Shown: positions 22,406 to 61,974, numbered from the stretch's first letter. The stretch is 64,000 nucleotides of DNA from Tagaea sp. (GCA_965279525.1 CBDIIB010000005.1:1760001-1824000), one strand, 5' to 3'. Notes: generated by a model not told the origin, from the sequence alone. Numbers and translations are program-made.

Positions 22406-24243
22406 ATGCGCATCCTCGGCCTGTCCGCGTACTACCACGATTCCGCCGCCGCCCTCGTCGTCGACGGGCGCATCGTCGCGGCCGCCCAGGAAGAGCGCTT
22501 CACCCGCAAGAAGCACGACAGCCGCTATCCATCGAGCGCGATCGCGTACTGCCTGGAAGCCGGCGGCATCGCGGCCGGCGACGTCGACCATGTCGTCTTC
22601 TACGACAAGCCGTTCCTGAAGTTCGAACGGCTGCTCGAGACCTACCTCGCCTTCGCGCCCCGCGGTTTCAAGTCGTTCCGCATGGCGATCCCGGTCTGGC
22701 TCAAGGAGAAGCTCTTCCAGAAGAAGCTGCTCGGCGACGAGCTGATGGCGGCTGCCCCCGAGTTCGACTGGGAGAACCGCCTGCTGTTCGCCGAGCACCA
22801 CCAGAGCCATGCCGCCTCCGCCTTCTTCCCCTCGCCGTTCGAGGAAGCGCTGGTGCTGACGATGGACGGCGTGGGCGAATGGGCGACCACGTCGGTCGGG
22901 ATCGGGCGCGGCAATTCGCTGGAGATGATCCGCGAGATCCACTTCCCGCATTCGCTGGGGCTGCTCTATTCGGCCTTCACCTACTACACGGGCTTCAAGG
23001 TCAATTCGGGCGAATACAAGGTGATGGGCCTCGCCCCCTACGGCGAACCCAAATACGTGAAGCAGATCTTCGAGCATCTGGTCGACCTCAAGGCCGACGG
23101 TTCGTTCCGTCTCAACATGGACTATTTCGACTACTGCACCGGCCTCACGATGACGAACGCGAAGTTCGACCGGCTGTTCGGCTCGCCGCCGCGCGGGCCC
23201 GAGCAGCGCCTCGACCAGCGCCACATGGATCTCGCCGCCTCGGTGCAGGCGGCCCTCGAAGAGATCGTGCTGCGCCTGACGCGTTCGCTGCAGGCCGAGA
23301 CGGGCATGAAGAACCTGTGCCTCGCCGGCGGCGTGGCGCTCAATTGCGTGGCCAACGGCAAGGTGCTGCGCGACGGCAAATGGGACAATATCTGGATCCA
23401 GCCGGCGTCCGGCGATGCGGGCGGTGCGCTGGGGGCGGCCCTTGCGGGCTACCACCTGTTCAAGGGCGGTGCGCGCACGGCCGACGGCAAGAAGGATTCG
23501 ATGCAAGGGTGCGTATCTTGGCCCCGAGTTCGCGCAAGACCAGATCGAGAAGCGCCTGACGGCGGCTGGCGCCAAGTTCGAGGTGCTGAATGATGAAGCG
23601 CTGATCCAGCGCGCGTCCGCCGATCTTGCCTCGGGGCTGGCGCTGGGCTGGTTCCAGGGCCGCATGGAATTCGGGCCGCGGGCACTCGGCGGGCGTTCGA
23701 TCCTGGGCGACGCGCGCAGCCCGGCGATGCAGAAGATGCTCAACCTCAAGGTCAAGTACCGCGAGAGCTTCCGCCCCTTCGCCCCCTCGGTGCTGCGCGA
23801 GGACGTTTCCGACTGGTTCGAGATCGACTGCGATTCGCCCTACATGCTTCTCGTCGCCGACGTGCAGAAGTCGCGCCGGCGCGCGATGACGGCCGGCCGA
23901 GCAGGCGCTGTTCGGCATCGACAAGCTCAACGTGCCGCGCTCGGACATCCCGGCGGTCACGCATGTCGACTATTCGGCGCGCGTCCAGACGGTGCATGCC
24001 GACACCAACCCGCGCTACCACGCGCTCATTTCCGCGTTCAAGGCGGCAACGGGCTGCCCCGTGATCGTCAACACGAGCTTCAACGTGCGCGGCGAACCCA
24101 TCGTCGGCTCGCCCGAGGACGCGTTCCGCTGCTTCATGGGCTCCGAAATCGAGCGCCTCGCGGTCGGGAACTGCTATCTGGTCAAGGACGTGCAGGACCC
24201 GGCGCTGAAACTCGACTACAAGGACGCCTTCGAACTCGATTAG
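22406..24243 (+). CDS. O-carbamoyltransferase (NodU/CmcH/SxtI family), two apparent frameshifts (~23508, ~23895)
   Basis: YYHDSAA, EHHQSHA, DGVGE, GEYKVMGLA, GGVALN, EFGPRALG, RESFRPFAP, NTSFN. Confidence 0.9.
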
Positions 24244-45822: not shown

Positions 45823-46461
45823 TTACTGGCTGACCCACAGGATGCGGTGGCAGAAGACGACGTCCGACACTTCGAGGACGCGTTCGCCGTGCGCCGCGTT
45901 GAGCGAGGTGAGCTCGAGCTTGCGCTGGCCCTTGCGGATCAGCTGCTTTGCCATCACTTCGCCCGTCGTGGTCTTGACCACGCAGCGGTCGCCGCGGCGC
46001 AGGCTGGCCTGCGGCGAGACGACGATCGTGTCGCCGTCGCGGTAGACCGGCTCCATGCTGTCGCCCGCGACCATCAGCGCGTAGGCGTGCGTGTCGGCAA
46101 GCTCGGGGAACAGCAGCTCGTCCCAGCCCGCCCCGGTCGGATAGCCGGCATCGTCGAAGAAGCCCTTCTCGCCGGCCTGCGCGTAGCCGATCACGGGCAC
46201 GCGGCGCATGGCGCCGGCCACGCTCGGCACGGTGCCGATATAGCCGACGAACTCCGACATCGTGGCGCCGGTCGCCTCGAGGATCTTGGAGATGCTCTCG
46301 GTCGACGGCCAGCGCGGGCGGCCGTCGCGCGAGATGCGCTTGGACTTGTTGAAGGTTGTGGGATCGAGGCCGGCGCGGCGCGCCAGTCCCGACGGGGAGA
46401 AGCCATGATCGCCTGCGAGCTGATCGATGGCCTGCCAAACATCTGCGTGACGGAGAATCAT
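45823..46461 (-). CDS. HTH plus S24 peptidase (CI/LexA-like) repressor
   Basis: N-terminal HTH (SGLARRAGLDPTTFNKSKR), AQAG cleavage-site-like motif, GDSM Ser, MAK Lys. Confidence 0.88.
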   Translation of the reverse strand: MILRHADVWQAIDQLAGDHGFSPSGLARRAGLDPTTFNKSKRISRDGRPRWPSTESISKILEATGATMSEFVGYIGTVPSVAGAMRRVPVIGYAQAGEKGFFDDAGYPTGAGWDELLFPELADTHAYALMVAGDSMEPVYRDGDTIVVSPQASLRRGDRCVVKTTTGEVMAKQLIRKGQRKLELTSLNAAHGERVLEVSDVVFCHRILWVSQ

Positions 46462-46496
46462 GTGTGAATTTTTACTCAGGTTGTTGCGGAATGCAT

Positions 46497-46512
46497 TAGG
46501 TATGTAAGCCAA
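46497..46512. promoter_or_regulatory. Candidate operator copy 1 (TAGGT-N6-GCCAA)
   Basis: TAGGTATGTAAGCCAA, 36 nt upstream of the repressor start; the same 10 flanking bases recur at 47147. Confidence 0.5.
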
Positions 46513-46572
46513 AATATATCTTCAAATGAAAATAAACGCAAGTTTGTATGGATTGCGTCCCTGTCAAAGGAT

Positions 46573-46587
46573 GTTTAGCTTTTGTTC
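46573..46587 (+). promoter_or_regulatory. Putative alphaproteobacterial LexA box
   Basis: GTTT-AGCTTTT-GTTC versus consensus GTTC-N7-GTTC, 20 nt upstream of ATG 46608. Confidence 0.5.
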
Positions 46588-46607
46588 TTTCCATTTCAGG
46601 TAGTGAC

Positions 46608-47075
46608 ATGCGGCGATTCCCAAGGGCGGGCAGGGTGCCGGAAGCGGCAAAGGCGGGTGGTCTTGCCACGGCCGGGGCGCGTGCCCTCGTCGTGTTCCGC
46701 GACCAGACCGAGATCCGCTGGCTCTACGGCCTCCGGCGGGGCTTCCGCCACTGCGCGGTGTGGGTGCGGGCGGGCGATTTCTGGATCGCACAGGAAACCC
46801 TTTCGCATCAGACTTTATTGGGGGTCTGGCCGGCCGGTGACGGGACCGGGCTGGTGGCGGCCCTGCGCGCGTCCGGGCACCGGGTCGTGCGCACGCGCAT
46901 CGCGGCGGCTCCCCGCCGGATCGCCCCGCCGCTGCCGTTCAGCTGTGTGGAATCGGTCAAGCGCGTTCTGGGCATCCACGCCTGGGATGTGCTGACCCCC
47001 TGGCAGCTCTACCGGCATTTGATCCGGGGGCGTTCAAAATCGATATTGACAATTACCCTAACTAGGAATATTTAA
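46608..47075 (+). CDS. Hypothetical protein, possible permuted papain-like (His-before-Cys) peptidase
   Basis: FRHCAV ... FSCVESVKRVLG ... LTPWQLY motif order. Confidence 0.65.
   Translation: MRRFPRAGRVPEAAKAGGLATAGARALVVFRDQTEIRWLYGLRRGFRHCAVWVRAGDFWIAQETLSHQTLLGVWPAGDGTGLVAALRASGHRVVRTRIAAAPRRIAPPLPFSCVESVKRVLGIHAWDVLTPWQLYRHLIRGRSKSILTITLTRNI
47046..47074 (+). promoter_or_regulatory. Putative sigma70 promoter of the head operon
   Basis: TTGACA-N17-TATTTA in an AT-rich patch. Confidence 0.55.
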
Positions 47076-47146
47076 TAAAACAGGCTCGATATTCGGGCAG
47101 TTTCGGGTTTCGAAGGGCGCGATTTCGGGCGCCTTGGAACCGGAAA

Positions 47147-47162
47147 TAGGTTTTAGTGCCAA
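47147..47162. promoter_or_regulatory. Candidate operator copy 2 (TAGGT-N6-GCCAA)
   Basis: TAGGTTTTAGTGCCAA just upstream of the RBS of the first structural gene. Confidence 0.5.
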
Positions 47163-47183
47163 CTTTTTTGCTGGAGATGTCCC

Positions 47184-47399
47184 ATGGGTGGTTTTTTCTC
47201 GGCTCCCTCGATTCCCGCTTCGCCGCCACCGCCGCCGCTCCCCGAGCCGGTCGATACCGACAAGGAAGCGCGCGAGGCGCGCATCAAGGCGCTGATCCGC
47301 CGCCGGCGCGGCCGGGCCGGCCTTGTCGCGACCGGCGATCGCGGCGTGCTGCAGGCCCCGGCCGGCGCCTCGCTGCTGGCGACGAAGCTGGGAGAATGA
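47184..47399 (+). CDS. Small Pro/Arg-rich putative virion protein preceding the portal
   Basis: GGAG RBS, MGG...P-rich...RRGR...LG; ATGA overlap with portal; position matches the small pre-portal genes of podoviruses. Confidence 0.7.
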   Translation: MGGFFSAPSIPASPPPPPLPEPVDTDKEAREARIKALIRRRRGRAGLVATGDRGVLQAPAGASLLATKLGE

Positions 47400-48952
47400 C
47401 GATGGCCGATTTCGATCCGCCCACTTTCGATCCGGCCGCCGCCGCCAGCGAAGCGCTTGCCCGCTACCGGCGCGCGCGCCAGTCGCGCGGCAACTGGGAA
47501 GCGGTCTGGCAGGACTGCTACGAGTTCGCGTTGCCCCAGCGCACGCCGTCGGGGACCGGCGGCATCGAGCGGCGCGGCGAGCGGCTGTTCGACGGCACAG
47601 CCGGCGACGCGGCCGAGCAGCTTGCCGCCTCGCTGATGTCGCAGCTCGTGCCGCCCTGGTCGCGCTGGTTCGGCCTGCAGCCGGGCAACGAGGTGCCCGA
47701 GGCGCATCGCACGGCCGTCGGCGAGGTGCTGGAAAAGGCCGCCGCCACGCTGCAGGCGCATTTCGACCGCTCGAACTTCGCCATGGAGATCCACCAGTGT
47801 TTCCTCGACCTCGTCGTCGCCGGCACGGCGATGCTGCAGTTCGAGGAAGCGCCGGCAGGGGCGGACTCCGCGTTCCGCTTCGCGGCCGTGCCGCTGGGAA
47901 GACTGGCGCTCGACGAGACCGCCGAAGGCGCCTTCGACATCGTCTTCCGCACGAGCGAGCTTTCCGCCGAACGGCTGATGGCGCGTTTTCCCGACGCGGC
48001 ACTGCCCGACGCGATCCGGAAAACCGACCCGCGCGGCAGCGCCGAGCGGCGCTTCACGGTCGTCGAATCGCTGCAGGCCGAGCGGCCGGGCTTCCGTTAT
48101 CTCGCCCTGCTCGAGGACGGCACCGACGCGTCCGGCCCCGTCGTGCTAGCGGAGGGGCGTTTCGAGCAGCCGCCGTTCCTCGCCTTCCGCTGGCTCAAGG
48201 CGCCGGGCGAGGTCTATGGCCGCTCGCCCGTGATGAAGGCGCTGCCCGACATCAAGACCGCCAACAAGGTGGTCGAACTCGTGCTGAAGAACGCGTCGAT
48301 CGCGGTCACCGGCATCTGGCAGGCGGACGACGACGGCGTGCTCAACCCCGCGAACATCCGCCTGCAGCCGGGCACGATCATCCCCAAGGCAGTGGGTTCG
48401 GCCGGCCTCACGCCGCTCGAAGCACCCGGGCGCTTCGACGTGTCGAACCTCGTGCTCGACGACCTGCGCAAGCGCATCCGCCATGCGCTTCTCGCCGACC
48501 GTCTCGGGCAGGTCGACAGCCCGACGATGACCGCGACCGAGGTGCTGGAACGTTCGGCGGAGATGTCGCGCATCCTGGGGGCGACCTATGGCCGCCTGCA
48601 GGCCGAACTGCTGACGCCGCTGATCGCGCGCGCCATCGCCATCCTGCGCCGGCGCGGCGAGATCCCGCCCGTGCTGGTCGACGGGCGCACGGTCGAGCTC
48701 CAGTACAAGTCGCCGCTGGCACTCGTGCAAGCGCAGGCCGACGTGCGCAACGCCATGCTGTGGATCACCCAGGCCGCCAGCCTCGGCCCCGAGGCGATGG
48801 CCGTCGTCGATGCCGGGGCCGCCGCACGCTGGATGGCGCGCGCGTTGAGCGTGCCGGCCGATCTCGTCCGTCCGCCGTCCCCTGTTCTGCCGGGGCCTGT
48901 TTCGCCGATGGCGATGCTCGCCCAAGTCCTCACACCCCAACCCCAACAGTGA
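47396..48952 (+). CDS. Head-to-tail connector (portal), T7 gp8/BPP-1 type
   Basis: LFDGTA..A...LAA.L...L.P....WF, RW....GEVYGRSP...ALPDIK, MTATEV.ER, Y.SPLA..Q. Confidence 0.9.
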   Translation: MTMADFDPPTFDPAAAASEALARYRRARQSRGNWEAVWQDCYEFALPQRTPSGTGGIERRGERLFDGTAGDAAEQLAASLMSQLVPPWSRWFGLQPGNEVPEAHRTAVGEVLEKAAATLQAHFDRSNFAMEIHQCFLDLVVAGTAMLQFEEAPAGADSAFRFAAVPLGRLALDETAEGAFDIVFRTSELSAERLMARFPDAALPDAIRKTDPRGSAERRFTVVESLQAERPGFRYLALLEDGTDASGPVVLAEGRFEQPPFLAFRWLKAPGEVYGRSPVMKALPDIKTANKVVELVLKNASIAVTGIWQADDDGVLNPANIRLQPGTIIPKAVGSAGLTPLEAPGRFDVSNLVLDDLRKRIRHALLADRLGQVDSPTMTATEVLERSAEMSRILGATYGRLQAELLTPLIARAIAILRRRGEIPPVLVDGRTVELQYKSPLALVQAQADVRNAMLWITQAASLGPEAMAVVDAGAAARWMARALSVPADLVRPPSPVLPGPVSPMAMLAQVLTPQPQQ

Positions 48953-48963
48953 AAGGAAGAACC

Positions 48964-49686
48964 ATGACCGATACGATCGCGAATTCCCCCGCAACGCCGC
49001 CGCCTTCGCGCCCCGACCACGTGCCCGAGAAATTCTGGGACGTGGAGGGCAACCAGGTGCGCGTCGAGGCGCTGTCGAAATCCTATTCGGAACTCGAGCG
49101 CAAGCTCTCCGGCATGATCCCGGGGCCGAAATCGCCCGAATGGGAGCAGAGCTGGCGCAAGGCGCTGGGCGTGCCCGAAGCGCCCGACGCCTACCGCATC
49201 GCGCCCAAGGACGAACTCGTTTCGGTCGATCCGGAAGTGAACCGCCGCCTGCATGCGGCCGGCTTCACGCCGCAGCAGGCCCAGCTCGTCTACGACCTCG
49301 CGGTCGAGCGGCTCGTCCCGATGGTGCAGGACTATGCCGAGAGCTACCGCACCGAGACCGCGCGCGAGAAGCTCGCGGCCGAGTTCGGCGGCGCGGATCA
49401 ATGGGCCGCACTGGCCCCGCAGATCGCGCGCTGGGGCCAGCAGGCCCTGCCTTCGCATGTCTACGCGGCGCTCGCCGCGTCGCCCGAGGGCGTGCGCGCG
49501 ATGCACCGCATGATGTCGTCGAAGGAACCGGACCTGCGTGGCTTCGGCGGTGCGGCCGCCCCGCTCGACGAGGAAGGCCTGCGCAAGCTGATGTCCGACA
49601 AGCGCTACTGGCGCGACCACGACCCCGCGGTCGTGCGTGCCGTCAGTGAAGGTTTCAAGCGGCTCTACCCGGATCGCGAATCCTGA
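48964..49686 (+). CDS. Capsid assembly/scaffolding protein
   Basis: PEKFWD...L.KSY.ELE, PEAPDAY, C-terminal YW..HDP; between portal and capsid; AAGGA RBS. Confidence 0.75.
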   Translation: MTDTIANSPATPPPSRPDHVPEKFWDVEGNQVRVEALSKSYSELERKLSGMIPGPKSPEWEQSWRKALGVPEAPDAYRIAPKDELVSVDPEVNRRLHAAGFTPQQAQLVYDLAVERLVPMVQDYAESYRTETAREKLAAEFGGADQWAALAPQIARWGQQALPSHVYAALAASPEGVRAMHRMMSSKEPDLRGFGGAAAPLDEEGLRKLMSDKRYWRDHDPAVVRAVSEGFKRLYPDRES

Positions 49687-49696
49687 TCCGCAGGGC

Positions 49697-49725
49697 TTGA
49701 CAACAAAACAACCATAGATTATATA
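49697..49725 (+). promoter_or_regulatory. Near-consensus sigma70 promoter upstream of the capsid gene
   Basis: TTGACA-N17-TATATA. Confidence 0.65.
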
Positions 49726-49936
49726 CCGGATCGTTCCGCCCCGCCCTGTGCGCGGGAGAACGGAACGACCCACTTCCTTCCAGCGCCAACGGGACAACCG
49801 GCTTTCCGGCCCCCACGGCACCGCCCGACTTTCCCCCGCGAAACGGGGTCGTGGCTTTCGTGTCCTTTCCGGACGCGGGCGCCTCGGCAACCCTCGCTTG
49901 CGGGTCCCCCGAACCCAACTCGCAACAGAGGGACCC

Positions 49937-50749
49937 ATGCCCGACATCGACAAGGCTTTCGTCAAGCAATACGAGAACGACGTCCATCTCGCCTTCCAGC
50001 GGATGGGCTCGAAACTGCGCACGAGCGTGCGCTCGAAGAAGAACGTCCAGGGTGCTTCGACCGTCTTCCAGAAAATGGGTCGCGGCGCCGCCACCACCAA
50101 GGCCCGCCACGCGGCCGTGCCCGTGATGAACGTCGACCATGCGACGGTCGAAGTGTTCCTCAAGGATTATTACGCGGGCGAATGGCTCGACGCGCTCGAC
50201 GAGATCAAGGCGCCGAGCGACGAGCGTTCGGCGGTCGTCAATTCCGGCGCCTACGCGCTGGGACGCAAGACCGACGAGCTGATCATCGGCGCACTCCAGA
50301 CCTCGGCGAACTTCGCCGGGGCCGACACCGACGGTCTCACCAAGGCCAAGATCCTGACCGCGTTCGAGATGCTGGGCGCTTCCGACGTGCCCGACGACGG
50401 TGACCGCTTCGCCATCATCGGGTGGAAGCAGTGGAGCGAGCTGCTCGACATCGACGAGTTCGCCAACGCCGACTATGTCGGCGCCGACGATCTCCCGTGG
50501 CAGGGCACGCAGGCCAAGAAGTGGCTCGGCACCTTGTGGATGCCGCATTCGGGCCTGCTCGCCAGCGGCGGCGTGCGCGCGTGCCACTGGTACCACAAGG
50601 CCGCGGTCGGCCACGCGTCGGGCTGCGAGGTGCGCTCGGACGTGTCGTGGCACGGCGACCGCGCGTCGTTCTTCATCAGCAACATGATGAGCCAGGGCGC
50701 CGGCATCATCGATGCCGCCGGCGTCGTGACCCTGCGCTGCAAGGAATAG
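49937..50749 (+). CDS. Major capsid protein (podoviral)
   Basis: FVKQY...VH..FQ..GSKLR..V, AYALGRKTDELII, ..ADYV; follows the scaffold. Confidence 0.85.
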   Translation: MPDIDKAFVKQYENDVHLAFQRMGSKLRTSVRSKKNVQGASTVFQKMGRGAATTKARHAAVPVMNVDHATVEVFLKDYYAGEWLDALDEIKAPSDERSAVVNSGAYALGRKTDELIIGALQTSANFAGADTDGLTKAKILTAFEMLGASDVPDDGDRFAIIGWKQWSELLDIDEFANADYVGADDLPWQGTQAKKWLGTLWMPHSGLLASGGVRACHWYHKAAVGHASGCEVRSDVSWHGDRASFFISNMMSQGAGIIDAAGVVTLRCKE

Positions 50750-50758
50750 GAGCGAACG

Positions 50759-51028
50759 ATGGCCTTCGAACTCAGGAACCTGTCCGTGCTCGCCTACGCG
50801 AACGGCTTCACGCTGTGGCACTACGCCACGCCGGATGAAGCCGCCGCGGTCGACGATGCGGGCTACTTCAACGCCGCCGCCGACATGCTGCGCGCCGGCG
50901 ACATGATCCTTGCCAACACGGCCACGACGACGGCGCCGCAAAGCGGCGTCTTCGCGGTCGCGACGGTGGCGGCGGGATCGGTCGATGCCGCGAGCCTGAC
51001 ACCGTTCGGCACGTCCAACCCCGACTGA
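50759..51028 (+). CDS. Small protein after capsid (possible decoration protein)
   Basis: AGGAG RBS; LSVLAYANGFTLWHY...GYFN.A..ML..GD.I. Confidence 0.7.
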   Translation: MAFELRNLSVLAYANGFTLWHYATPDEAAAVDDAGYFNAAADMLRAGDMILANTATTTAPQSGVFAVATVAAGSVDAASLTPFGTSNPD

Positions 51029-51040
51029 CGAAACGGCAAC

Positions 51041-51076
51041 CCGGCGGGCGCGATCGCGTCCGCCGGACTTTCCCTT
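51041..51076 (+). terminator. GC-rich hairpin with pyrimidine tail between head and tail genes (weak terminator/attenuator)
   Basis: CCGGCGGGCGC-GATC-GCGTCCGCCGG followed by ACTTTCCCTT. Confidence 0.5.
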
Positions 51077-51092
51077 GTCCGGAGAATCCGCA

Positions 51093-51662
51093 ATGGCCCT
51101 CACGTCCATCGCCTTGTGCGCGCGCGCCCTCGTCAAGCTCGGTGCCCGCTCGATCGCCTCGTTCGACGAAGGCACGGCCGAGGCGGAAGTCGCCGCCGTG
51201 CTCTATCCATCCGTGCGCGACGGCCTGCTGTCCGCCCATCCGTGGAGCTTCGCGACCGGCCAGGCCACGCTTGCGCGCCTTGCGCGCGATCCCGTCGCCG
51301 ACCACGCCTTCGCCTACCAGCTTCCGGCCGATTTCCTGCGCGCTTTGTCGCTGGGGACGGGCACGCGCGGCCGCGGGACCGAATACCGGATCGTGGAATC
51401 CACGCTCCACTGCGATGCCGACCAGGTCGTGCTGTCCTACGTGTTCCGGCCCGACGAGACCGGCTTCCCGCCCTTCTTCGACACGCTGCTGATCGCCACG
51501 CTGGCGGCCGAGTTCTGCCTGCCGGTGACGGAAAGCACCAGCCGCGCCGAACTGCTGCGCCGCGTGGCCGAGGGCGAGTTCCGGCGCGCGCGCCTGATCG
51601 ACGCCCAGCAGGACACGCCCCAGCGCATCGAGGACTTCACGCTGGTGGAGGCCCGCCGATGA
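51093..51662 (+). CDS. Tail tubular protein A/adaptor (T7 gp11-like)
   Basis: C.RAL..LG...I.SF.E, HPWSFA, YQLP.DFLR, LA.E.C.P.T. Confidence 0.8.
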   Translation: MALTSIALCARALVKLGARSIASFDEGTAEAEVAAVLYPSVRDGLLSAHPWSFATGQATLARLARDPVADHAFAYQLPADFLRALSLGTGTRGRGTEYRIVESTLHCDADQVVLSYVFRPDETGFPPFFDTLLIATLAAEFCLPVTESTSRAELLRRVAEGEFRRARLIDAQQDTPQRIEDFTLVEARR

Positions 51663-53566
51663 GCGTCGTGCGCATCGCCAAGACGAGCTTCGCCTCGGGC
51701 GAGATCGGACCGGCCATGCTGGGCCGCGTGGACCTGCGCGCGTTCGAGAACGGGGCGCGCACGTTGCGCAACGTCATCGTGCAGCCGTCGGGCGGCGTGA
51801 CGCGCCGGCCGGGGCTGGCGCATGTCGCCACGCTGCCGGGCCCGGCCCGGCTGGTCGCGTTCGAGTTCAACACCGAGCAGGCCTATCTGCTGGCCCTCCT
51901 CGACGGGGAGATGCGCGTCTATCGCGAGGGCGTGCAGGTGGCGAGCCTCGCCACACCGTGGACGGGCGCGCAGATCGGCCAGGTCGCGTGGACGCAGAGT
52001 GCGGACACGCTGCTCGTCGTGCATCCCGACGTGCCGCCGCGGCGCATCACGCGCACGTCGCACGCGGCGTGGACGATCGAGCCGTGGGCCTTTTTCGAGG
52101 ACAAGGGTGTGCGCCACCAGCCCTACCACAAGTTCGCCGCGACCGACGTCACACTCCAGCCGAGCGGAACGTCGGGCTCCGTGACGCTGACGGCGTCGGC
52201 CGACGCGTTCGTCGCCGGCCATGTCGGCGAGAAGCTGCGCGTCCAGCAGAAGGAGCTGACGGTCACCGCCGTGACGGGTCCGCGCAGCGCCACCGCCACC
52301 CTCGCGACCGACCAGACGCTGCCCGACACGAGCGCGACGCGCGACTGGGAGGAGGCGGCGTTTTCCGCCATCCGCGGCTGGCCGGTATCGGTCACGTTCC
52401 ACCAGGACCGGCTCGTCGTCGGCGGTTCGCGCGACCTGCCCAACCGGCTGTGGCTGTCGAAATCGGGCGACCTGTTCAATTTCGATCTGGGCACGGGTCT
52501 GGACGACGAGGCGATCGAGTTCGCGCTGCTGTCCGACCAGGTCAACGCGATCCGCCACGTCTTCTCGGGTCGCCACCTGCAGGTCTTCACGTCGGGGGCC
52601 GAATGGATGGTGACGGGCGAGCCGCTGACGCCCGAGAACGTCCAGCTCGACCGGCAGACGCGCATCGGCAGTCCGACGGACCGTTCGGTACGGCCGCGCG
52701 ACGTGGATGGTGCGACGCTATTCGTCGGGCGCGGCGGACATGATCTTCGCGAGTTCCTGTTCGCCGATGGCGAGCAGGCCTATCAGGCGACGGATCTGGC
52801 GTTGCTTGCCCCGCATCTGGTGCGCGATCCCGTCGCCATCGAGTACGACCCGGACGACCGGCTGCTGCACGTCGTCAATGCCGACGGCACGCTTGCCACG
52901 CTGACGGTCTATCGCGCCGAGCAGGTGACCGCGTGGGCGTTGCAGACGACGCTCGGGTACTTCCGTTCGGTCGCGACGGTGTCGGACGAGACCTATCTTG
53001 CGGTCGAGCGCACGGGCATCTGGTCGGTCGAACGCTTCGACCGGTCCTTCGCGACCGACGCTGCCGTGCGGCTTGAGCCGCCGCAGAACGCCACGCAGTG
53101 GACGGGCCTTGCGCATCTCGACGCCAAGAAAGTCGAACTCGTCGGCGACGGCGTGCCGCTGGGCACCGGCATCCCGATCGGCGGCACACTTGACGTACGG
53201 GCACCCGTCGCGTCGCTCGAAGCGGGCCTCGCATTCGCCGCCGTGATCGAACCTCTGCCGCCCACGCTTGCCGCGGCCGGCGGGGCGAGCCCGCGCAGCG
53301 TGCGCCTGATCGAGGCCGCGTTCCGCCTGCTGGAGGCGCGCCAGATGCGCATCGACACCGGCGGCGGTGCCGTCGACGTGCCGTTCCGCCGCTTCGCCGC
53401 CGGCAGCACCCTCGACCAGCCCGTCGCCGGCTTCACCGGCGAGAAACGCGTGCGCGCGTTGGGCTGGAAGCGGGCCGGCATCGACGCGCTGTGGCGCATC
53501 GAACTGCCGGCACCGCTGCCTTTCACGCTGCTTTCCGTAACCCACGAACTGAAGGTGAATGACTGA
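51659..53566 (+). CDS. Tail tubular protein B/nozzle (T7 gp12-like)
   Basis: SF.SGEI.P...GR.D, N....GG..RRPG, FHQDRL, W.S..GD..NF, AW. Confidence 0.82.
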   Translation: MSVVRIAKTSFASGEIGPAMLGRVDLRAFENGARTLRNVIVQPSGGVTRRPGLAHVATLPGPARLVAFEFNTEQAYLLALLDGEMRVYREGVQVASLATPWTGAQIGQVAWTQSADTLLVVHPDVPPRRITRTSHAAWTIEPWAFFEDKGVRHQPYHKFAATDVTLQPSGTSGSVTLTASADAFVAGHVGEKLRVQQKELTVTAVTGPRSATATLATDQTLPDTSATRDWEEAAFSAIRGWPVSVTFHQDRLVVGGSRDLPNRLWLSKSGDLFNFDLGTGLDDEAIEFALLSDQVNAIRHVFSGRHLQVFTSGAEWMVTGEPLTPENVQLDRQTRIGSPTDRSVRPRDVDGATLFVGRGGHDLREFLFADGEQAYQATDLALLAPHLVRDPVAIEYDPDDRLLHVVNADGTLATLTVYRAEQVTAWALQTTLGYFRSVATVSDETYLAVERTGIWSVERFDRSFATDAAVRLEPPQNATQWTGLAHLDAKKVELVGDGVPLGTGIPIGGTLDVRAPVASLEAGLAFAAVIEPLPPTLAAAGGASPRSVRLIEAAFRLLEARQMRIDTGGGAVDVPFRRFAAGSTLDQPVAGFTGEKRVRALGWKRAGIDALWRIELPAPLPFTLLSVTHELKVND

Positions 53567-54126
53567 TGGGTGGTTTCGCTCCGACCGATCCGGTCACGGC
53601 CGGGATCGCAGGCGTCAGCCTGCTCCACGGCATCGCTAGCTCGGGTGCTGCCGCATCCCACGCGCAGGCGCAAGCCGCCGCACAGGCGCAGGCCATGCAG
53701 GTGCAGGCCGAACGCCAGCGCCAGCTGCTCGAGCGCCAGTACGAGTCACAGACGCGCCAGCGCACCAACCTGCTCGAACGCGCGACCGCGAAGGCGCGCG
53801 TGTCGTTCGGTGCGCGCGGCATCTCGCCGACCGACGGTTCGGCGGGCGCCATGCTCGACGGCATCGAGACCGATTTCGGCATCGAGGAGGCCGAACGCTT
53901 CCAGGACTACACGATGCAGCGCGACGGGCTGGCGCACGGGCTGGCGGCCTCGCTCCAGCGCATCGACGGCATGCGCCAGGGCAACTTGCTCGCCGCGGAG
54001 TCCGACGTGCAGCGCCGGATCCTCGGCCTGCTGAGCTGGGGCGGCCGGACTTTCGGCCGAAGTGGCGGAAATCAGCGGGCGCCGACCGGTGATTTCCCCG
54101 TTGGCCCCTACGACAACTTCGTCTGA
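53566..54126 (+). CDS. Ala/Gln-rich putative internal virion (ejection) protein
   Basis: Gly/Ala hydrophobic N-terminus, AQAQ coiled coil, GARGI...GS motif; follows the nozzle gene. Confidence 0.6.
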   Translation: MGGFAPTDPVTAGIAGVSLLHGIASSGAAASHAQAQAAAQAQAMQVQAERQRQLLERQYESQTRQRTNLLERATAKARVSFGARGISPTDGSAGAMLDGIETDFGIEEAERFQDYTMQRDGLAHGLAASLQRIDGMRQGNLLAAESDVQRRILGLLSWGGRTFGRSGGNQRAPTGDFPVGPYDNFV

Positions 54127-54142
54127 CGCAAGGAGCACCCTC

Positions 54143-55894
54143 ATGAGCGAACACATCAAGATTGCCGCCCGTCCGCCGCGCAAGCGCTATCGCGCCGACG
54201 GCAGCCAGCGCGTCTTCGCCTTCGACTTCGCGGTCTTCCGGCCCGAAGACATCGAGATCGGCATCGACGGCGCGGTCCTTTCGGGCGGCTACACCGTCGC
54301 GGTCGGCACTGCCGGCAGCGGTGCCGTCACGCTCGACGTGGCACCGCCCGACGGTGCCGCCGTCGTCGTCCAGCGCCGCCTGCTGCTGCGCCGCGAGACG
54401 GATTTCCAGGAAGGCGGCGAGCTGCGCGCCAAGACGCTCAACGACGAACTCGATTTCCAGGCGGCCGCCCTCCAGCAGGTCGCGAGCGCGGTGGCGCGGT
54501 CGCTGCACCTGCCCGACGAAGATGCCGACGATGCCGCAACGCGCCTGCCGCGCGCCGGGCTGCGCGCACGCAAGGCGCTGGTGTTCGACATGGCCGGCAA
54601 TCCGGCCGTGTCGGCCGACATATATGTCGACCAGGCGGCGGCGTCGGCGGCGAGTGCCGACGCTGCCGCCGGATCGGCGACGGCGGCCGGCACGTCTTCC
54701 GCGTCCGCTTCGGCATCCGCTGGTGCAGCACTCGTGTCCGCCGATGCGGCGGCCGCATCGCAAGCACTTGCCGCAACGCATCTGGCCGGCACGACCATCC
54801 ACGCGGGCACGGCTGCCGCCGCCGCATCGGCCGTCGCCGTGCCGTGGACCCATGACGCATCGGTCGCGATCGACGATCCGGGTCCGGGACGCTTCCGCTT
54901 CGATGCGGCCGACCCGTCGGCGGCGGGCGCCATCGCGGTGTCGGCCCTTTCCGCCGATACCGGCGTGCCCGACGTCTCGGACTTCGTCGCGACGTGGGGG
55001 GCCAGCACCAACCCGGCGGTCAAGGGCACGCTGGTCTTGCGCAAGAGCGGCGCGCCGTCGACCTTCGCGGCGTTCGCGATCCAGTCGGTCGTCGATCACG
55101 GTGCCTGGCTTGCCGTCGCGGTCGCGCATGTCGCGTCGGGCGGAAGCTGGGCGGCGGGCGATCTGGCCCATTTCGGGTTCGCGCGCGCCGGTGACAAGGG
55201 CTTCGACGGGACCGGCACGGTCGTCAGCGTCGCGGCGGGCGACGGGTCGGTCGCGGTCGGCGGCACGCCGTTCGATCGCACCGTCGCCGTCGCCGCGAAC
55301 GGCGTGACGCTGGCCAAGCTCGCCCGAGAAGGATCGCCCGGACAGGTCCTCACGTCGAACGGGGCGGGTGCCGATCCCGCGTACCAGGCGCTGCCGGCGG
55401 GCGTGCCTGCGGGCACGGTCGTGCCCTATGCCGGGGCGAGCGAACCGGCGGGCTGGCTGTTCGCCGCCGGGCAGGCCGTGAGCCGGTCGGCGTTCGCAGC
55501 GCTTTTCGCGGCGATCGGCACGACGTTCGGCAGCGGCGACGGATCGACGACATTCAACCTGCCCGACCTGCGCGGGCGCGTGGCGGCCGGTCGCGACAAC
55601 ATGAACGGTACTTCCGCCAACCGCCTGACCGCCGGTGGTGCCGGCATCGCGGGCCTGACGCTTGGTGCGGCGGGCGGCAGCGAGACGCATGCGCTGACGG
55701 CCGCCCAGATGCCGGCGCATTCGCACAGCTACGTCGCCGGGGGCGGCGGCATGACGGTCGCGGGCTCCTTCGGCGGCACCGACACGACGGCCGGCACGCC
55801 GGGCAGCGGCAGCACGTCGGGAGCCGCGGGTTCGGGTGCGGCACATCCCAACGTGCAGCCCACGCTCGTCCTCAACCACATCGTCAAGACCTGA
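54143..55894 (+). CDS. Tail fibre protein with gp17-like N-terminal anchor and tail-collar domain
   Basis: ADG....F.F.F.VF...D N-terminus; Ala/Ser heptads; PAG.V.PYAG...P.GWL...GQ.VSR...FNLPDLRGR collar; H.NVQP..VLN.I.K end. Confidence 0.88.
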   Translation: MSEHIKIAARPPRKRYRADGSQRVFAFDFAVFRPEDIEIGIDGAVLSGGYTVAVGTAGSGAVTLDVAPPDGAAVVVQRRLLLRRETDFQEGGELRAKTLNDELDFQAAALQQVASAVARSLHLPDEDADDAATRLPRAGLRARKALVFDMAGNPAVSADIYVDQAAASAASADAAAGSATAAGTSSASASASAGAALVSADAAAASQALAATHLAGTTIHAGTAAAAASAVAVPWTHDASVAIDDPGPGRFRFDAADPSAAGAIAVSALSADTGVPDVSDFVATWGASTNPAVKGTLVLRKSGAPSTFAAFAIQSVVDHGAWLAVAVAHVASGGSWAAGDLAHFGFARAGDKGFDGTGTVVSVAAGDGSVAVGGTPFDRTVAVAANGVTLAKLAREGSPGQVLTSNGAGADPAYQALPAGVPAGTVVPYAGASEPAGWLFAAGQAVSRSAFAALFAAIGTTFGSGDGSTTFNLPDLRGRVAAGRDNMNGTSANRLTAGGAGIAGLTLGAAGGSETHALTAAQMPAHSHSYVAGGGGMTVAGSFGGTDTTAGTPGSGSTSGAAGSGAAHPNVQPTLVLNHIVKT

Positions 55895-55896
55895 AC

Positions 55897-57411
55897 ATGA
55901 AAAAGAAACCCGCCTTGCCGCCGCCGGCACCGCCTGCCGTGCCCGGCTTTCCCGCATTCGTCAACGACTGGAACGCGCTGCAGGGGCAGGGCACGCCCGC
56001 GTTGCACGCGCGCATGGCCGGCTGGCTTGCCGATGCGCGGGCGTCGCGCGCGGCGGGCCTGGTCCTGCTCGCGTTCCGCTCGAGCGGCAAGTCGACGCTG
56101 ATCGGGCTGTTCTGCGCCTGGCTGCTGGCGCGCGATCCCGACCTGCGCGTGCTGGTGCTGGCGGCGGAAGAAGCGCTCGCGCGCAAGATGGTGCGCAACG
56201 TCAAGCGCATCGTCGAGCGGCACCCGGCGACGGCGGGCCTGAAGCCGGTGCGCGCCGACATGTGGGCTTCGGACCAGTTCGTCGTCGAGCGGCGGGCGGA
56301 ACTGCGCGACCCCTCGATGCTGGCGCGCGGGCTTGCGGGCAACATCACCGGCAGCCGCGCCGACGTGGTGATCTGCGACGACGTCGAGGTGCCCAACACC
56401 TGCGACACGCACGCCAAGCGCGTCGAGCTGCGCGAACGGCTGACCGAGATCGACTACGTGCTCGTTCCCGGCGGCCTGCAGCTCTATATCGGCACGCCGC
56501 ACAGCTACTATTCGATCTATGCGGCCGAGGCGCGTGCTGAAGCGGGCGAAAGCGTGCCGTTCCTCGACGGCTTCACGCGCCTGTCGATCCCGGTCGTGGC
56601 GCCCGACGGGACCTATGCGTGGCCCGAGCGGTTCGACCTCGCGCGTCTGGATGCGGTGCGCAAGCGCACCGGCCCGCAGAAGTTCCGCGCGCAGATGATG
56701 CTGGAGCCGGTCGCCGACGGTGCCTGCCGGCTCGATCCCGACCGCCTCGTCGCCTACGACTGGCCGCTCGATTATTCGGAAGGCAACGGGGCGCCGGTCC
56801 TTTCGATCGGCGGCAAGCAGATGGTATCGGCCGGCTGCTGGTGGGATCCGTCCTATGGCACCGCGGCGGGCGACAGCTCCGTCGTCGCGGTCGTGTTCGC
56901 CGACAAGGAAGGCCATTGCTATCTGCACGAGGTGAAGTACCTCGCCCTTCCCGCCGGCACGCGCCCCGAGGACGAGGCGAAGGCGTTCTGCCGCCAGGTC
57001 GCCGAGTTCGCCAGGCGCAACCACGTGCCGGTCGTTCGCGTGGAAACCAATGGCCTTGGCGGATTCCTGCCCGGGCTGTTGCGCGGGGAAATCCTCGCGG
57101 CGAAGGCGGGCTGCGGGGCGGTCGGCATCCACAACCGGATACCGAAGGTCCGCCGCATCCTCGACGCGTTCGACGCGCGTCTGGCCGCCGGCATGCTCCA
57201 CGCCCATCGCGGCGTGTGGGCGACACCCTTCGTTGCCGAGATGCGCGAGTGGCGTGCCGACCTCAGCGGCGTGCGCGACGACGGGCTCGACGCCGTGGCC
57301 GGCTGCCTTGCCGGCGAGCCGGTGCGCTTTCCTGCCGTCGCACGCGAAACGCCGCCCGATTGGCGGCCGGGTGCGGGCTCGCACAAGGCGCGCACCGAGT
57401 TCGAGATCTGA
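55897..57411 (+). CDS. Terminase large subunit (T7 gp19-like)
   Basis: AFRSSGKS Walker A, TGSRAD..ICDDVE Walker B, IGTP, WDPS, ETNG, DDGLDA nuclease acidic residues. Confidence 0.9.
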   Translation: MKKKPALPPPAPPAVPGFPAFVNDWNALQGQGTPALHARMAGWLADARASRAAGLVLLAFRSSGKSTLIGLFCAWLLARDPDLRVLVLAAEEALARKMVRNVKRIVERHPATAGLKPVRADMWASDQFVVERRAELRDPSMLARGLAGNITGSRADVVICDDVEVPNTCDTHAKRVELRERLTEIDYVLVPGGLQLYIGTPHSYYSIYAAEARAEAGESVPFLDGFTRLSIPVVAPDGTYAWPERFDLARLDAVRKRTGPQKFRAQMMLEPVADGACRLDPDRLVAYDWPLDYSEGNGAPVLSIGGKQMVSAGCWWDPSYGTAAGDSSVVAVVFADKEGHCYLHEVKYLALPAGTRPEDEAKAFCRQVAEFARRNHVPVVRVETNGLGGFLPGLLRGEILAAKAGCGAVGIHNRIPKVRRILDAFDARLAAGMLHAHRGVWATPFVAEMREWRADLSGVRDDGLDAVAGCLAGEPVRFPAVARETPPDWRPGAGSHKARTEFEI

Positions 57412-57431
57412 AACGAGGAGAGGGATCTGCA

Positions 57432-57725
57432 ATGGATATGTTCGAACTGACGCCCGGCCTTGCGATCGTCGCGGCCTCCGACGCGTCGAGCTTCGGCGCG
57501 ATCGCGTGGCTGTTCTGGAAGCGCCACCAGGACCAGGAACGCATGCTCGATCGGCTGCGCCAGGCCTGTCTCGACGAGACGCGCGACCTGCGCCATGCGC
57601 TTGCCGAGTTCAAGCTCGAGGTCGCGCGCGGCTACGCGTCGATCGGCTACATCAAGGATGTCGAGAACCGGCTGACGGCCCACCTGCTGCGCATCGAGGC
57701 GAAGCTCGACGGAGTGGGCGCATGA
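57432..57725 (+). CDS. Small membrane/coiled-coil phage protein (holin-like)
   Basis: GAGGAG RBS; hydrophobic N-half; LAEFKLEVA..Y......VE.RL...L.RIE.KLD. Confidence 0.65.
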   Translation: MDMFELTPGLAIVAASDASSFGAIAWLFWKRHQDQERMLDRLRQACLDETRDLRHALAEFKLEVARGYASIGYIKDVENRLTAHLLRIEAKLDGVGA

Positions 57726-58267
57726 TCCCGGCCCTGATCGCCCAGGTCGGTCTGCCGCTGCTCGTCCGGCTCGTGGGCGGTGCCTTGTCGCAGATCGACC
57801 ATCCGGCCGCGCGCGCGGCGGCGGACGCACTCGAGACGGCCGGCGGCACGCTGACGCAAGAGCAGGTCGCCGAGGCCAACCGCCATCTCGAGGCGATGGC
57901 GCGGCTCGAAAGCGAGGAAGGCCGCGAGACGATCCGCGAGGTCAACGCCTCGCTGCGCACCGAGGCCGCCAGCGAGGACGCCTATGTGCGGCGCATGCGG
58001 CCGACCTTCGGCTACGTGATGGCCGCGACGTGGGCCGCCCAGATGGGGGCGGTGGCGTGGATCGTCGTGCGCAAGCCGGGCGAGGCCGCCGCGGTGATCG
58101 AAGCACTTGGCGCCTTGTCGGTCGTCTGGTCGGTCGGGCTGTCGGTGCTGGGCGTCTATGTCTACAAGCGCTCGTCCGACAAGGCGGTGGCGTCGGGGGC
58201 GGTGGCGTCGGGAAGTCCGCGGCCGGGCCTGGTCGATGCGATCCGAGGGGCCGTCTTGCGGCGCTAG
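57722..58267 (+). CDS. 3TM-type holin (GTA-holin-like family)
   Basis: EA.S.D.YVRR.RP..GY, two TM helices, LG.Y...RS.DK. Confidence 0.75.
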
Positions 58268-61626: not shown

Positions 61627-61974
61627 ATGGCGACTCCGATCTATCACATGTGCCGGCGCTCCGAATGGGCGGCCGCCCAGGCAAGCGGCAGTTACGCCGG
61701 GTCTTCGCAGGACCAGGCCGACGGCTTCATCCACTTCTCGACCGCCATACAAATAGTCGCCAGTGCCGCGAAGCATCGCGCCGGCCAGGACGATCTCGTG
61801 CTGATCGAGGTGCCGGCCGAGTCGCTCGGCGACGCGCTGAAATGGGAAGCCGCGCGCGGCGGCGCGCTGTTTCCGCATCTCTACGGCGCGCTGGCGGTCG
61901 GGCACGTGACACGCCATGCGCCGTTGCGCCTCGGCGCCGACGGCCGTCACGTCTTTCCGTGGGGGCTTGCATGA
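61627..61974 (+). CDS. DUF952 family protein
   Basis: IYH, D..DGFIHFST..Q, LKWE, FPHLYG.L; usual partner of pyrD. Confidence 0.88.
   Translation: MATPIYHMCRRSEWAAAQASGSYAGSSQDQADGFIHFSTAIQIVASAAKHRAGQDDLVLIEVPAESLGDALKWEAARGGALFPHLYGALAVGHVTRHAPLRLGADGRHVFPWGLA

Follow-up and report, generated by a model that had tools for sequence, protein, structure and literature searches.

Domesticated phage particles are already known in the form of gene transfer agents (GTAs), PBSX and tailocins. RcGTA (Rhodogtaviriformidae) is a siphovirus-like particle with an HK97 capsid and a prohead protease; its function is proven, and it is controlled by CtrA, GafA and quorum sensing. PBSX of Bacillus is a chromosomally fixed module of structural and lysis genes that is conserved in related species, is SOS-inducible and does not propagate itself. 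Here we describe a 12.4-kb cluster of phage-type genes at positions 45823-58267 of a 64-kb stretch of a Tagaea sp. genome (the window, to which all positions refer; the source genome has 4.35 Mb on 5 contigs and is 97% complete). The findings point to a real, intact and anciently domesticated phage-derived element, apparently an unrecognised kind of host-owned virus-like particle and possibly a GTA. We read the locus as a chromosomally fixed, domesticated derivative of a temperate T7/LME-1-type podovirus that retains nothing beyond the genes for assembling, filling and releasing a short-tailed, presumably SOS-controlled particle, and we give this reading as a whole a probability of roughly 0.6. 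Taken separately, a domesticated, host-maintained particle module is very probable, and GTA-type DNA transfer, as predicted from the gene set, is a tentative assignment with the odds leaning slightly against it.

The cluster resembles RcGTA in that head, tail and terminase genes are kept without replication or integration genes, are inherited with the host under purifying selection and lie at loci that are sometimes dispersed. Both have a holin of the Pfam family PF11351, and the host has ComEC. Unlike RcGTA, the cluster has a portal, scaffold, tail tubular proteins A and B and terminase of T7 type, its control is apparently by an S24 repressor and an SOS-like box, and it is known from its genes alone. 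It has no recognised small terminase, whereas a review passage describes the small terminase of RcGTA as lacking a DNA-binding domain (PMC11841831). With PBSX the cluster shares a fixed structural and lysis module and predicted SOS control; PBSX differs in its contractile, myovirus-type tail, its Gram-positive host and its Xre-type repressor, and the two have no homologous structural genes in common. The order portal, scaffold, capsid, tail A, tail B, gp14, fibre, terminase, holin and the families PF12236, PF05396 and PF19821 are those of T7-like, LME-1 and HTVC010P podophages, with the large terminase nearest to T7 gp19 and the capsid nearest to that of LME-1. In contrast to these phages, the cluster is without RNA and DNA polymerases, primase, integrase, gp15/gp16, small terminase and a recognisable endolysin, is fixed in host chromosomes, and has a portal at most 38% identical to that of any phage record, save for a 5-kb fragment at 60%.

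The passages on GTA types in two reviews cover RcGTA-like, Bartonella, Brachyspira, Desulfovibrio and Methanococcus GTAs and there tie none of them to a T7-type podoviral gene set (PMC9662315, PMC11841831), and the relevant part of George et al. (2022) concerns RcGTA homologues (PMC9254644). In the literature searched, from which most subscription journals are missing, no account was found of a podoviral or T7-type GTA or of a conserved cluster of this kind.

Gene content and chromosomal setting

Genes were called by third-position GC, because the G+C content of the window is 66-72%, and the calls were then checked against Pfam and PHROGs profiles. All genes listed in the original prediction, together with the adjacent repressor, were present in intact frames at the coordinates given, and a conserved 71-aa open reading frame (ORF) was added to the list. 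Several start codons were corrected relative to earlier calls, the true start of the first operon gene being 46608. Several neighbouring genes of the cluster overlap by an ATGA or by a few bases.

All genes of the operon lie on the plus strand. The structural set begins with a T7-type portal (head-tail connector; 47396..48952, PF12236 E 1.7e-137, phrog_332), which is followed by a scaffolding (T7 capsid assembly) protein (48964..49686, PF05396 E 1.5e-10, exceeding the curated cut-off) and the major capsid protein (49934..50749, PF19821 E 1.6e-77, phrog_3437). Among solved chains the latter is nearest to 9eg4, from the T=7 capsid of LME-1, a temperate Legionella podophage. A conserved 89-aa virion-module protein (p89; 50759..51028, phrog_18004 E 3.7e-18) comes next; the true prophage relative discussed below has this protein at the equivalent position. 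Tail tubular protein A (T7 gp11-like adaptor; 51093..51662, phrog_394 E 2.2e-46) starts with the ATG at 51093, which is preceded by a ribosome-binding site (RBS), and its stop forms an ATGA overlap with tail tubular protein B (T7 gp12-like nozzle; 51659..53566, phrog_376 E 1.7e-140). The following 186-aa protein (53566..54126) is probably a T7 gp14-like internal virion protein: in the Atlas comparison it scored 0.96 to clusters that carry PF24072 on 11-28% of their members, and its Pfam T7_gp14 match (E 0.024) was under the cut-off. The tail fibre (54143..55894; PF07484 E 1.5e-23, PF03906 E 4e-4) consists of a T7-type N-terminal anchor, a Collar domain and a variable C-terminus. It precedes the T7-type large terminase (55897..57411, phrog_38 E 1.1e-77), for which the nearest solved chains were 4bij (T7 gp19) and 8dgc_E. 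The cluster closes with two genes: a 97-aa protein that, by the topology read from its sequence, resembles a holin or spanin, with a hydrophobic stretch at the N-terminus and a coiled coil (h1; 57432..57725, phrog_29007 E 8e-24), and a holin of the GTA_holin_3TM family (h2; 57722..58267, PF11351 E 6e-10, 40.1 bits, with the cut-off at 24.8; phrog_1544 and phrog_3427, holin).

The reported lack of integrase, replication genes, phage RNA polymerase and att repeats was borne out. Of the 53 window ORFs that were scanned, none matched an integrase, replication or RNA polymerase family, and a repeat search found no att-like direct repeat bracketing the cluster, returning pentapeptide-repeat DNA and chance matches of 60-89% identity. 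No tRNA adjoins the cluster, the sole tRNA lying 13 kb off. The composition is host-like, as had been judged by eye: GC was 0.695 in the cluster, 0.690 in the remaining window and 0.664 in the genome, and the tetranucleotide distance of the cluster fell at the 71st percentile of 150 random genome chunks. The proposed host sigma70-type promoters did not hold up, since the scan gave 0 sites against 0.5 expected by chance. A conserved AT-rich element containing TTGACA is present at 47046.

Compared with an autonomous T7-like podovirus, the cluster has the portal, scaffold, tail tubular proteins A and B and large terminase, but neither a polymerase or primase of its own nor gp15/gp16. The integrase, att sites and variable presence among close relatives that mark an intact temperate prophage were not observed. 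Neither the PF05065 capsid nor the siphovirus-type head-tail cluster of the RcGTA-like family was seen, the portal, capsid and tail belonging to T7-type families; the HK97-type (RcGTA-type) capsid PF05065 was not found in the 97%-complete source genome either. What the cluster does share with GTAs as a class is a structural set without replication or integration genes and vertical inheritance under purifying selection, the latter with the caveat of a patchy distribution at family level.

Vertical inheritance and purifying selection

The genus sample comprised 20 other species (among named records, those titled Tagaea sp. came closest). The source genome has one copy of the cluster. The portal was found in 19 of the 20 species, in 17 of them at full length with 71-97% identity, in G016 as two contig-end pieces and in G015 as a fragment; it was absent from G014, a genome that is 86% complete. 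From repressor to holin the order was collinear in all 18 genus loci that were fetched, 13 of which were complete, 4 cut by a contig end and 1 without a match for h1 and h2. The cluster occupied one chromosomal site in 17-18 of the 20 species. Its right flank in the genus is DUF952-EAL, and in the closest relatives of the window MCP, cytochrome c peroxidase (CCP) and DUF952. Among 207 gene-by-genome cells (17 genus genomes, 13 genes) in-frame stops occurred in 3, all of them upstream of the true start of the first gene, and every one of the 14 missing cells lay at a contig end.

A tree of the concatenated portal, capsid, tail A and tail B proteins matched the RpoB tree in its three clades and inner pairs, and the cluster evolved several-fold faster than RpoB. 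The ratio of non-synonymous to synonymous substitution (dN/dS; pairwise NG86, pairs with dS 0.07-0.7) was 0.01-0.47 for the cluster genes overall, which is comparable to the flanking host genes (MCP, DUF952 and EAL, 0.08-0.27). It was 0.03-0.16 for the portal, 0.04-0.16 for the capsid, 0.01-0.18 for tail A, 0.05-0.28 for tail B, 0.04-0.34 for the terminase, 0.01-0.14 for h1, 0.09-0.37 for h2 and 0.06-0.47 for the gp14-like protein. The fibre was alignable over its N-terminal 19-57% only in most genus members and over 95-96% in G012, G019 and G010; a variable C-terminus is usual for receptor-binding proteins. Copy number, synteny, tree congruence and low dN/dS, which the original prediction had named as checks of domestication, thus all came out in its favour.

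A decaying cryptic prophage remnant without function is barely credible beside these data. Such a remnant would explain why replication, integration, small terminase and ejection genes are missing and why one species has a large internal deletion. An apparently equal gene set has also been judged non-functional: the section of a paper on 'Ca. Hepatincola porcellionum', a small-genome alphaproteobacterium, that deals with its 'prophage region 2' describes 10 genes, among them tail tubular protein A, capsid and head-tail connector, without att sites and in all three strains, and considers the region incomplete and inactive (PMC9992710). Likened by description alone, this region is probably an element of the same kind. 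However, the frames are intact in 204 of 207 cells with the 3 stops placed as described, dN/dS is low throughout, and the element occurs in at least 50 genera with its catalytic motifs intact.

Scanning a single genome for each species, also outside the genus, gave 527 loci with a related portal, and the best 80 of the 527 (57-95% identity) were analysed. They came from Azospirillum, Magnetospirillum, Paramagnetospirillum, Phaeospirillum, Caenispirillum, Telmatospirillum, Terasakiella, Ferrovibrio, Haematospirillum and many metagenome-assembled genomes. In 69 of the 80 loci the repressor was divergent next to the first gene, portal and scaffold, and 9 of the other 11 had less than 1.5 kb of contig upstream. 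In a class sample of 401 evenly drawn alphaproteobacterial genomes from 294 genera, the portal (threshold E<=1e-100) was present in 60 genomes and 50 genera, with exactly one match per carrier genome; carriers included genomes of 0.9-1.4 Mb. The GC content of the loci (0.31-0.69) tracked that of the hosts, as expected after amelioration. The portal tree matched taxonomy, with 13 named Azospirillum, the Magnetospirillum group, Caenispirillum, Ferrovibrio and Tagaea each forming a clade. Flanking genes were core host genes, namely sdhCDAB and an aminotransferase in Azospirillum, where no integrase was seen at the flanks.

In several genera the locus is interrupted or fragmented. Host genes stand between scaffold and capsid, in the form of GGDEF-EAL and PRC-barrel genes in A. 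brasilense and of an ODP lactamase and an MCP fragment in Magnetospirillum (L077 12561-15430, L110 12706-15207 and L056 12503-14013), and cyclic di-GMP (c-di-GMP) genes recur in or beside the cluster. In Azospirillum sp. TSH64 the two halves of the cluster, one with the portal and the other running from capsid to terminase, are ~315 kb apart, and in P. caucaseum they lie on separate contigs, with open frames in both species. A split or interruption of this kind would be intolerable for a virus, and it is compatible with an intact, host-owned gene set. In a 0.9-Mb genome with a GC content of 0.40 (G371, L161 2321-11726) the cluster genes were close together in a shuffled order: capsid, p89, tail A, fibre, terminase N-terminus, portal, h1, tail B, scaffold.

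The closest phages among 50,697 records were HTVC010P-type pelagiphages, with 31-38% portal identity. The portal of MT838907.1, an unannotated 5,084-bp faecal record titled 'Bacteriophage sp.', was 60% identical to that of the window, and the record may be a bacterial fragment of the cluster element. A true prophage relative was found in a Magnetospirillum genome (L123, G044:C136, 82-18724); it carries a primase, an endolysin, a holin and two internal proteins (778 aa and 760 aa), and its terminase is a different one whose gene lies upstream of the portal. By tblastn no homologue of its primase, internal proteins or endolysin was found anywhere in the source genome. In this Magnetospirillum prophage (L123, and L121 on G045:C11) capsid, p89 and tail A were 51-68% identical to those of the window, and portal and tail B 33-34%. 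IMG/VR contained 482 relatives classed as viral or proviral. Among the best 80 of these the contigs were 4-25.6 kb long, plus one of 94 kb, and had the gene order of the cluster; short contigs of this order indicate that the pipelines detect the cluster itself and not a larger phage. The five records that were checked were proviruses rated 64-73% 'complete'. Virus-prediction pipelines thus file cluster loci as proviruses, which inflates prophage counts. Tyrosine-recombinase (PF00589) matches were present in 2 of the 5 records, after a truncated capsid in L175 and, weakly (29 bits), after tail B in L188; we tentatively read both as insertions.

A still-mobile element, either a minimal temperate phage or satellite using helper functions or a module repeatedly acquired at a preferred site, would be in line with the viral and proviral IMG/VR relatives, the patchiness across families, the mosaic similarity to an active-looking prophage and the integrase-family genes in 2 of 5 records. 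We nevertheless regard it as highly improbable: neither an integrase nor an att repeat or tRNA marks the site, each carrier genome has a single copy, the trees are congruent with RpoB and taxonomy, the locus can be split by 315 kb or hold host genes, its GC content is ameliorated, and the best 80 IMG/VR contigs, at most 25.6 kb long save for one of 94 kb, contain this same cluster. Copy number, synteny, trees, dN/dS, split loci and the lack of close phages together support the earlier proposal of a host-maintained, domesticated podoviral module distinct from RcGTA.

Repressor, SOS-like repeat and empty sites

Divergent from the operon, on the minus strand (45823..46461), lies a gene for a LexA/CI-like repressor with an S24 peptidase and a helix-turn-helix (HTH) domain (PF00717 E 3.5e-20; phrog_4). 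Its ORF can be extended to 46512, but conservation places the start at 46461, with the Met of 'MILRHADVW'. The cleavage site and Ser/Lys dyad of self-cleaving S24 repressors of the LexA/CI type were found: the A119-G120 site and the Ser of G147-D148-S149 were invariant in 6 of 6 aligned sequences, and the Lys was kept in 5 of 6. The repressor is distinct from the host LexA, which lies on contig C3. The intergenic region between repressor and first gene contains an SOS-box-like direct repeat, GTTT-N7-GTTC (46573..46587, plus strand), a candidate operator that all 12 aligned genus members retain. In the host, the promoter of lexA contains GAAC-N7-GAAC, which we take to be the alphaproteobacterial SOS box. 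An SOS-like repeat lay in the corresponding intergenic region of 41 of the 80 loci, across many genera, and the true figure is higher, since some of the extracted stretches did not reach far enough. Strict matches occurred in 27 of the 80 loci against ~0.4 expected from the 73 strict sites in the source genome.

Three genomes of the same family without the structural genes (G062, G059 and G024) have a repressor homologue, 58-75% identical, divergent beside DUF952-EAL. These 'empty sites' are located at L255 5618-6751, L256 12632-14774 and G024:C56:3620-4785, respectively, and the SOS-like box was absent from all three. Azospirillum (L118, L124) and a member of a different family (L164) likewise have DUF952-EAL after the cluster. 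Of the 401 genomes in the class sample, 95 (including the unpublished G088) had the repressor, against 60 with the portal. Counted by hand from the match tables, 42 genomes had both, 53 the repressor alone and 18 the portal alone, and in 41 of the 42 with both the two genes were divergent and adjacent, within 4.4 kb on one contig. The description of the regulator as a CI/LexA-like repressor beside the cluster therefore stands as regards its S24 type and its position, but it is not simply a phage CI, as its homologues are more widespread than the cluster and persist beside DUF952.

The most economical interpretation of these distributions would be an ancestral arrangement of repressor, cluster and DUF952 with repeated loss of the structural genes. 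That such loss occurs is seen in G015 (L169, G015:C38 6952-9814), where a deletion from portal to terminase at the same site left the repressor, the first gene, short fragments of portal, capsid and terminase, h1, h2 and DUF952-EAL, a half-way stage. Alternatively, a phage module could have been captured under a resident regulator. The repressor was 92-98% identical in 12 genus members, whose portals were 76-97% identical, and 46-51% identical in five members of the third clade (L023-L026, L030; portal 71-73%), which is below the 56-67% of Azospirillum; the drop in the third clade may reflect an allele replacement or a burst of divergence.

The persistence of the repressor beside DUF952-EAL in relatives without structural genes would also fit a host-regulatory or otherwise co-opted role, such as programmed lysis linked to c-di-GMP or stress signalling, or an anti-phage decoy or superinfection barrier made of virion proteins. 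So would the recurrence of GGDEF/EAL genes inside or beside the cluster and its retention in genomes of 0.9-1.4 Mb. Against such a role, portal, scaffold, capsid, adaptor, nozzle, fibre and terminase are conserved jointly, and a coherent virion set argues for assembly of a whole particle. We consider a function other than DNA transfer of this type distinctly improbable.

Packaging, lysis and the predicted particle

The motifs of the large terminase were invariant in 9 sequences from at least 6 genera. This applied to Walker A (G64-K65-S66), Walker B (D161-D162-x-E164) and the acidic residues of the nuclease (D317, E383, D461/462/465). A small terminase was not recognised, the 71-aa, 89-aa and first-gene proteins having no terminase-like family match at E<=1. 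Neither gp15/gp16-type ejection proteins nor a recognisable endolysin were found in the cluster. The source genome has a ComEC homologue (G000:C3:574631-576804), which adjoins lexA in convergent orientation.

The first operon gene (46608..47075, plus strand) encodes a 155-aa candidate cell-wall hydrolase. It had no Pfam or PHROGs match, and Foldseek against the PDB gave no match at E<=0.001. His48 and Cys113 were invariant in 40 sequences. The AlphaFold2 (AF2) model (pLDDT 84) was placed by the VIA-wide search near TseH, a peptidoglycan-degrading effector (6v98, Z 7.0), YiiX (2if6, Z 5.8) and the Bacillus cysteine peptidase 3kw0 (Z 4.6), although Z values of this size are common by chance. A weak Atlas lead to Peptidase_C92 (0.78) agreed with these neighbours. 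We put at about even the odds that the protein is a permuted NlpC/P60-type (YiiX/TseH-like) cysteine hydrolase, perhaps the missing lysin.

From these components the following sequence of events can be proposed. The operon would be kept silent by the divergent S24 repressor, perhaps with the help of host LexA at the repeat 46573-46587. Upon DNA damage active RecA would, to judge from the conserved motifs, promote self-cleavage of the repressor at its Ala-Gly site, and the operon would be transcribed. Portal, scaffold and capsid would then assemble into proheads which the large terminase fills with DNA; with no recognisable small terminase little sequence specificity is expected, and the DNA would be mostly that of the host. 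The gp11/gp12-type tail, the gp14-like protein and the fibre would be added, and lysis of the producer would fall to the PF11351 holin and the 97-aa membrane protein, perhaps aided by the NlpC/P60-like product of the first gene. Since gp15/gp16-type ejection proteins are missing, the particle might deliver DNA to the periplasm of a recipient at most, and ComEC-type uptake would be needed, as for RcGTA; this last step is speculative.

The main rival is a PBSX-like defective-phage particle for killing or altruistic lysis. It would be SOS-induced, have heads filled with host DNA or empty, be released by lysis and act on competitors or supply extracellular DNA and other public goods, with no productive gene transfer. 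The S24 repressor and SOS-like box, the loss of gp15/gp16-type proteins, the fibre C-terminus that differs between species, the retained lysis genes and the genus-wide conservation, which is also that of PBSX, all agree with such a particle. On the other hand, the ATPase and nuclease motifs of the terminase are invariant across genera, portal and scaffold are under strong purifying selection, and no killing domain was recognised. The terminase motifs and the selection on portal and scaffold indicate that DNA packaging is selected for; PBSX packages DNA too, so the rival stands, and by sequence it is inseparable from a GTA. On balance we hold it to be unlikely.

For the reading as a host-owned transfer particle, the gene content, the intactness, the vertical inheritance, the purifying selection and the fragmentation of the locus in other genera are observed. 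More broadly, the cluster could represent a second ancient alphaproteobacterial GTA lineage (viriforms) that goes back to a T7/LME-1-type podovirus and not to an HK97 siphovirus, present once each in ~15% of the sampled genomes, switched on by the SOS response via a host-resident S24 repressor, packaging host DNA without a small terminase and delivering it to the periplasm only, with uptake by recipient competence. To this fuller proposal we would assign somewhat less than an even chance.

Several points weigh against the transfer-particle reading. The particle, its packaged DNA and the transfer are predictions from the gene set, and since no small terminase was recognised, packaging could be defective instead of promiscuous. 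The predicted control, through an S24 repressor and an SOS box, resembles that of prophages or PBSX and differs from the CtrA, GafA and quorum control of RcGTA. If the T=7 geometry of LME-1 is kept, the head would hold more DNA than the 12.4-kb locus, and the GTA criterion of a head too small for its own genes may fail where the locus is contiguous. The element is patchy at family level, the portal being found in 0 of 29 genomes from 14 other genera of the GTDB order of the window, and the module is dispensable, as seen from the G015 deletion and the 53 sampled genomes with the repressor alone. The mosaic similarity to the Magnetospirillum prophage suggests recombination between the domesticated cluster and active phages, and the recombinase matches in two IMG/VR records belong on the same side. 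Contigs from RNA libraries of one plankton sample (X21, X22), 88-97% alike, fell on the repressor, portal, capsid, tail A and B, terminase-h1 and h2; flanking genes occurred at similar depth, and these contigs cannot prove transcription. Runs X8 and X20 are probably DNA.

If the particles are made, a major bacterial class would gain a widespread and independently domesticated particle system. Its carriers would include experimentally tractable bacteria, both plant-associated and magnetotactic, as well as reduced genomes, and the system would offer a natural comparison of the virion functions that are kept on domestication with those that are lost, the latter being small terminase, ejectosome, replication and integration. 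The element may also bear, as a lead only, on particles from Azospirillum. According to the passages of a 2012 Azospirillum comparison on A. lipoferum 4B and B510, mitomycin-induced particles contained random 10-kb host DNA and were probably GTAs, tentatively ascribed to RcGTA-like genes, and the genes are not firmly assigned there (PMC3899980).

The 71-aa basic protein added to the gene list (47184..47399, plus strand) is conserved and has no assigned role. Its stop overlaps the start of the portal gene, and its RBS, start and KEAREARIKA..RRRRGR motif were kept in 16 of 16 aligned genus members; Pfam and PHROGs profile searches gave no family at E<0.01. Outside the cluster the window consists of ordinary core genome. 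Upstream are rpoN, hpf, lptB/C and gltB, then VTT, GST and pentapeptide-repeat genes, and downstream MCP, CCP, DUF952 and an EAL protein, whose gene runs from position 61916 onward. Between the 89-aa gene and tail A an 11-pair, GC-rich hairpin precedes a T-rich run (51041-51066), an arrangement that may serve as an internal attenuator separating head from tail expression. Elsewhere in the window, the N- and C-terminal Pfam domains of a carbamoyltransferase lie in separate ORFs (22406-23593 and 23932-24243) that are ~340 bases apart; the separation may stem from a split of the gene, from a frameshift or from the way the ORFs were called.

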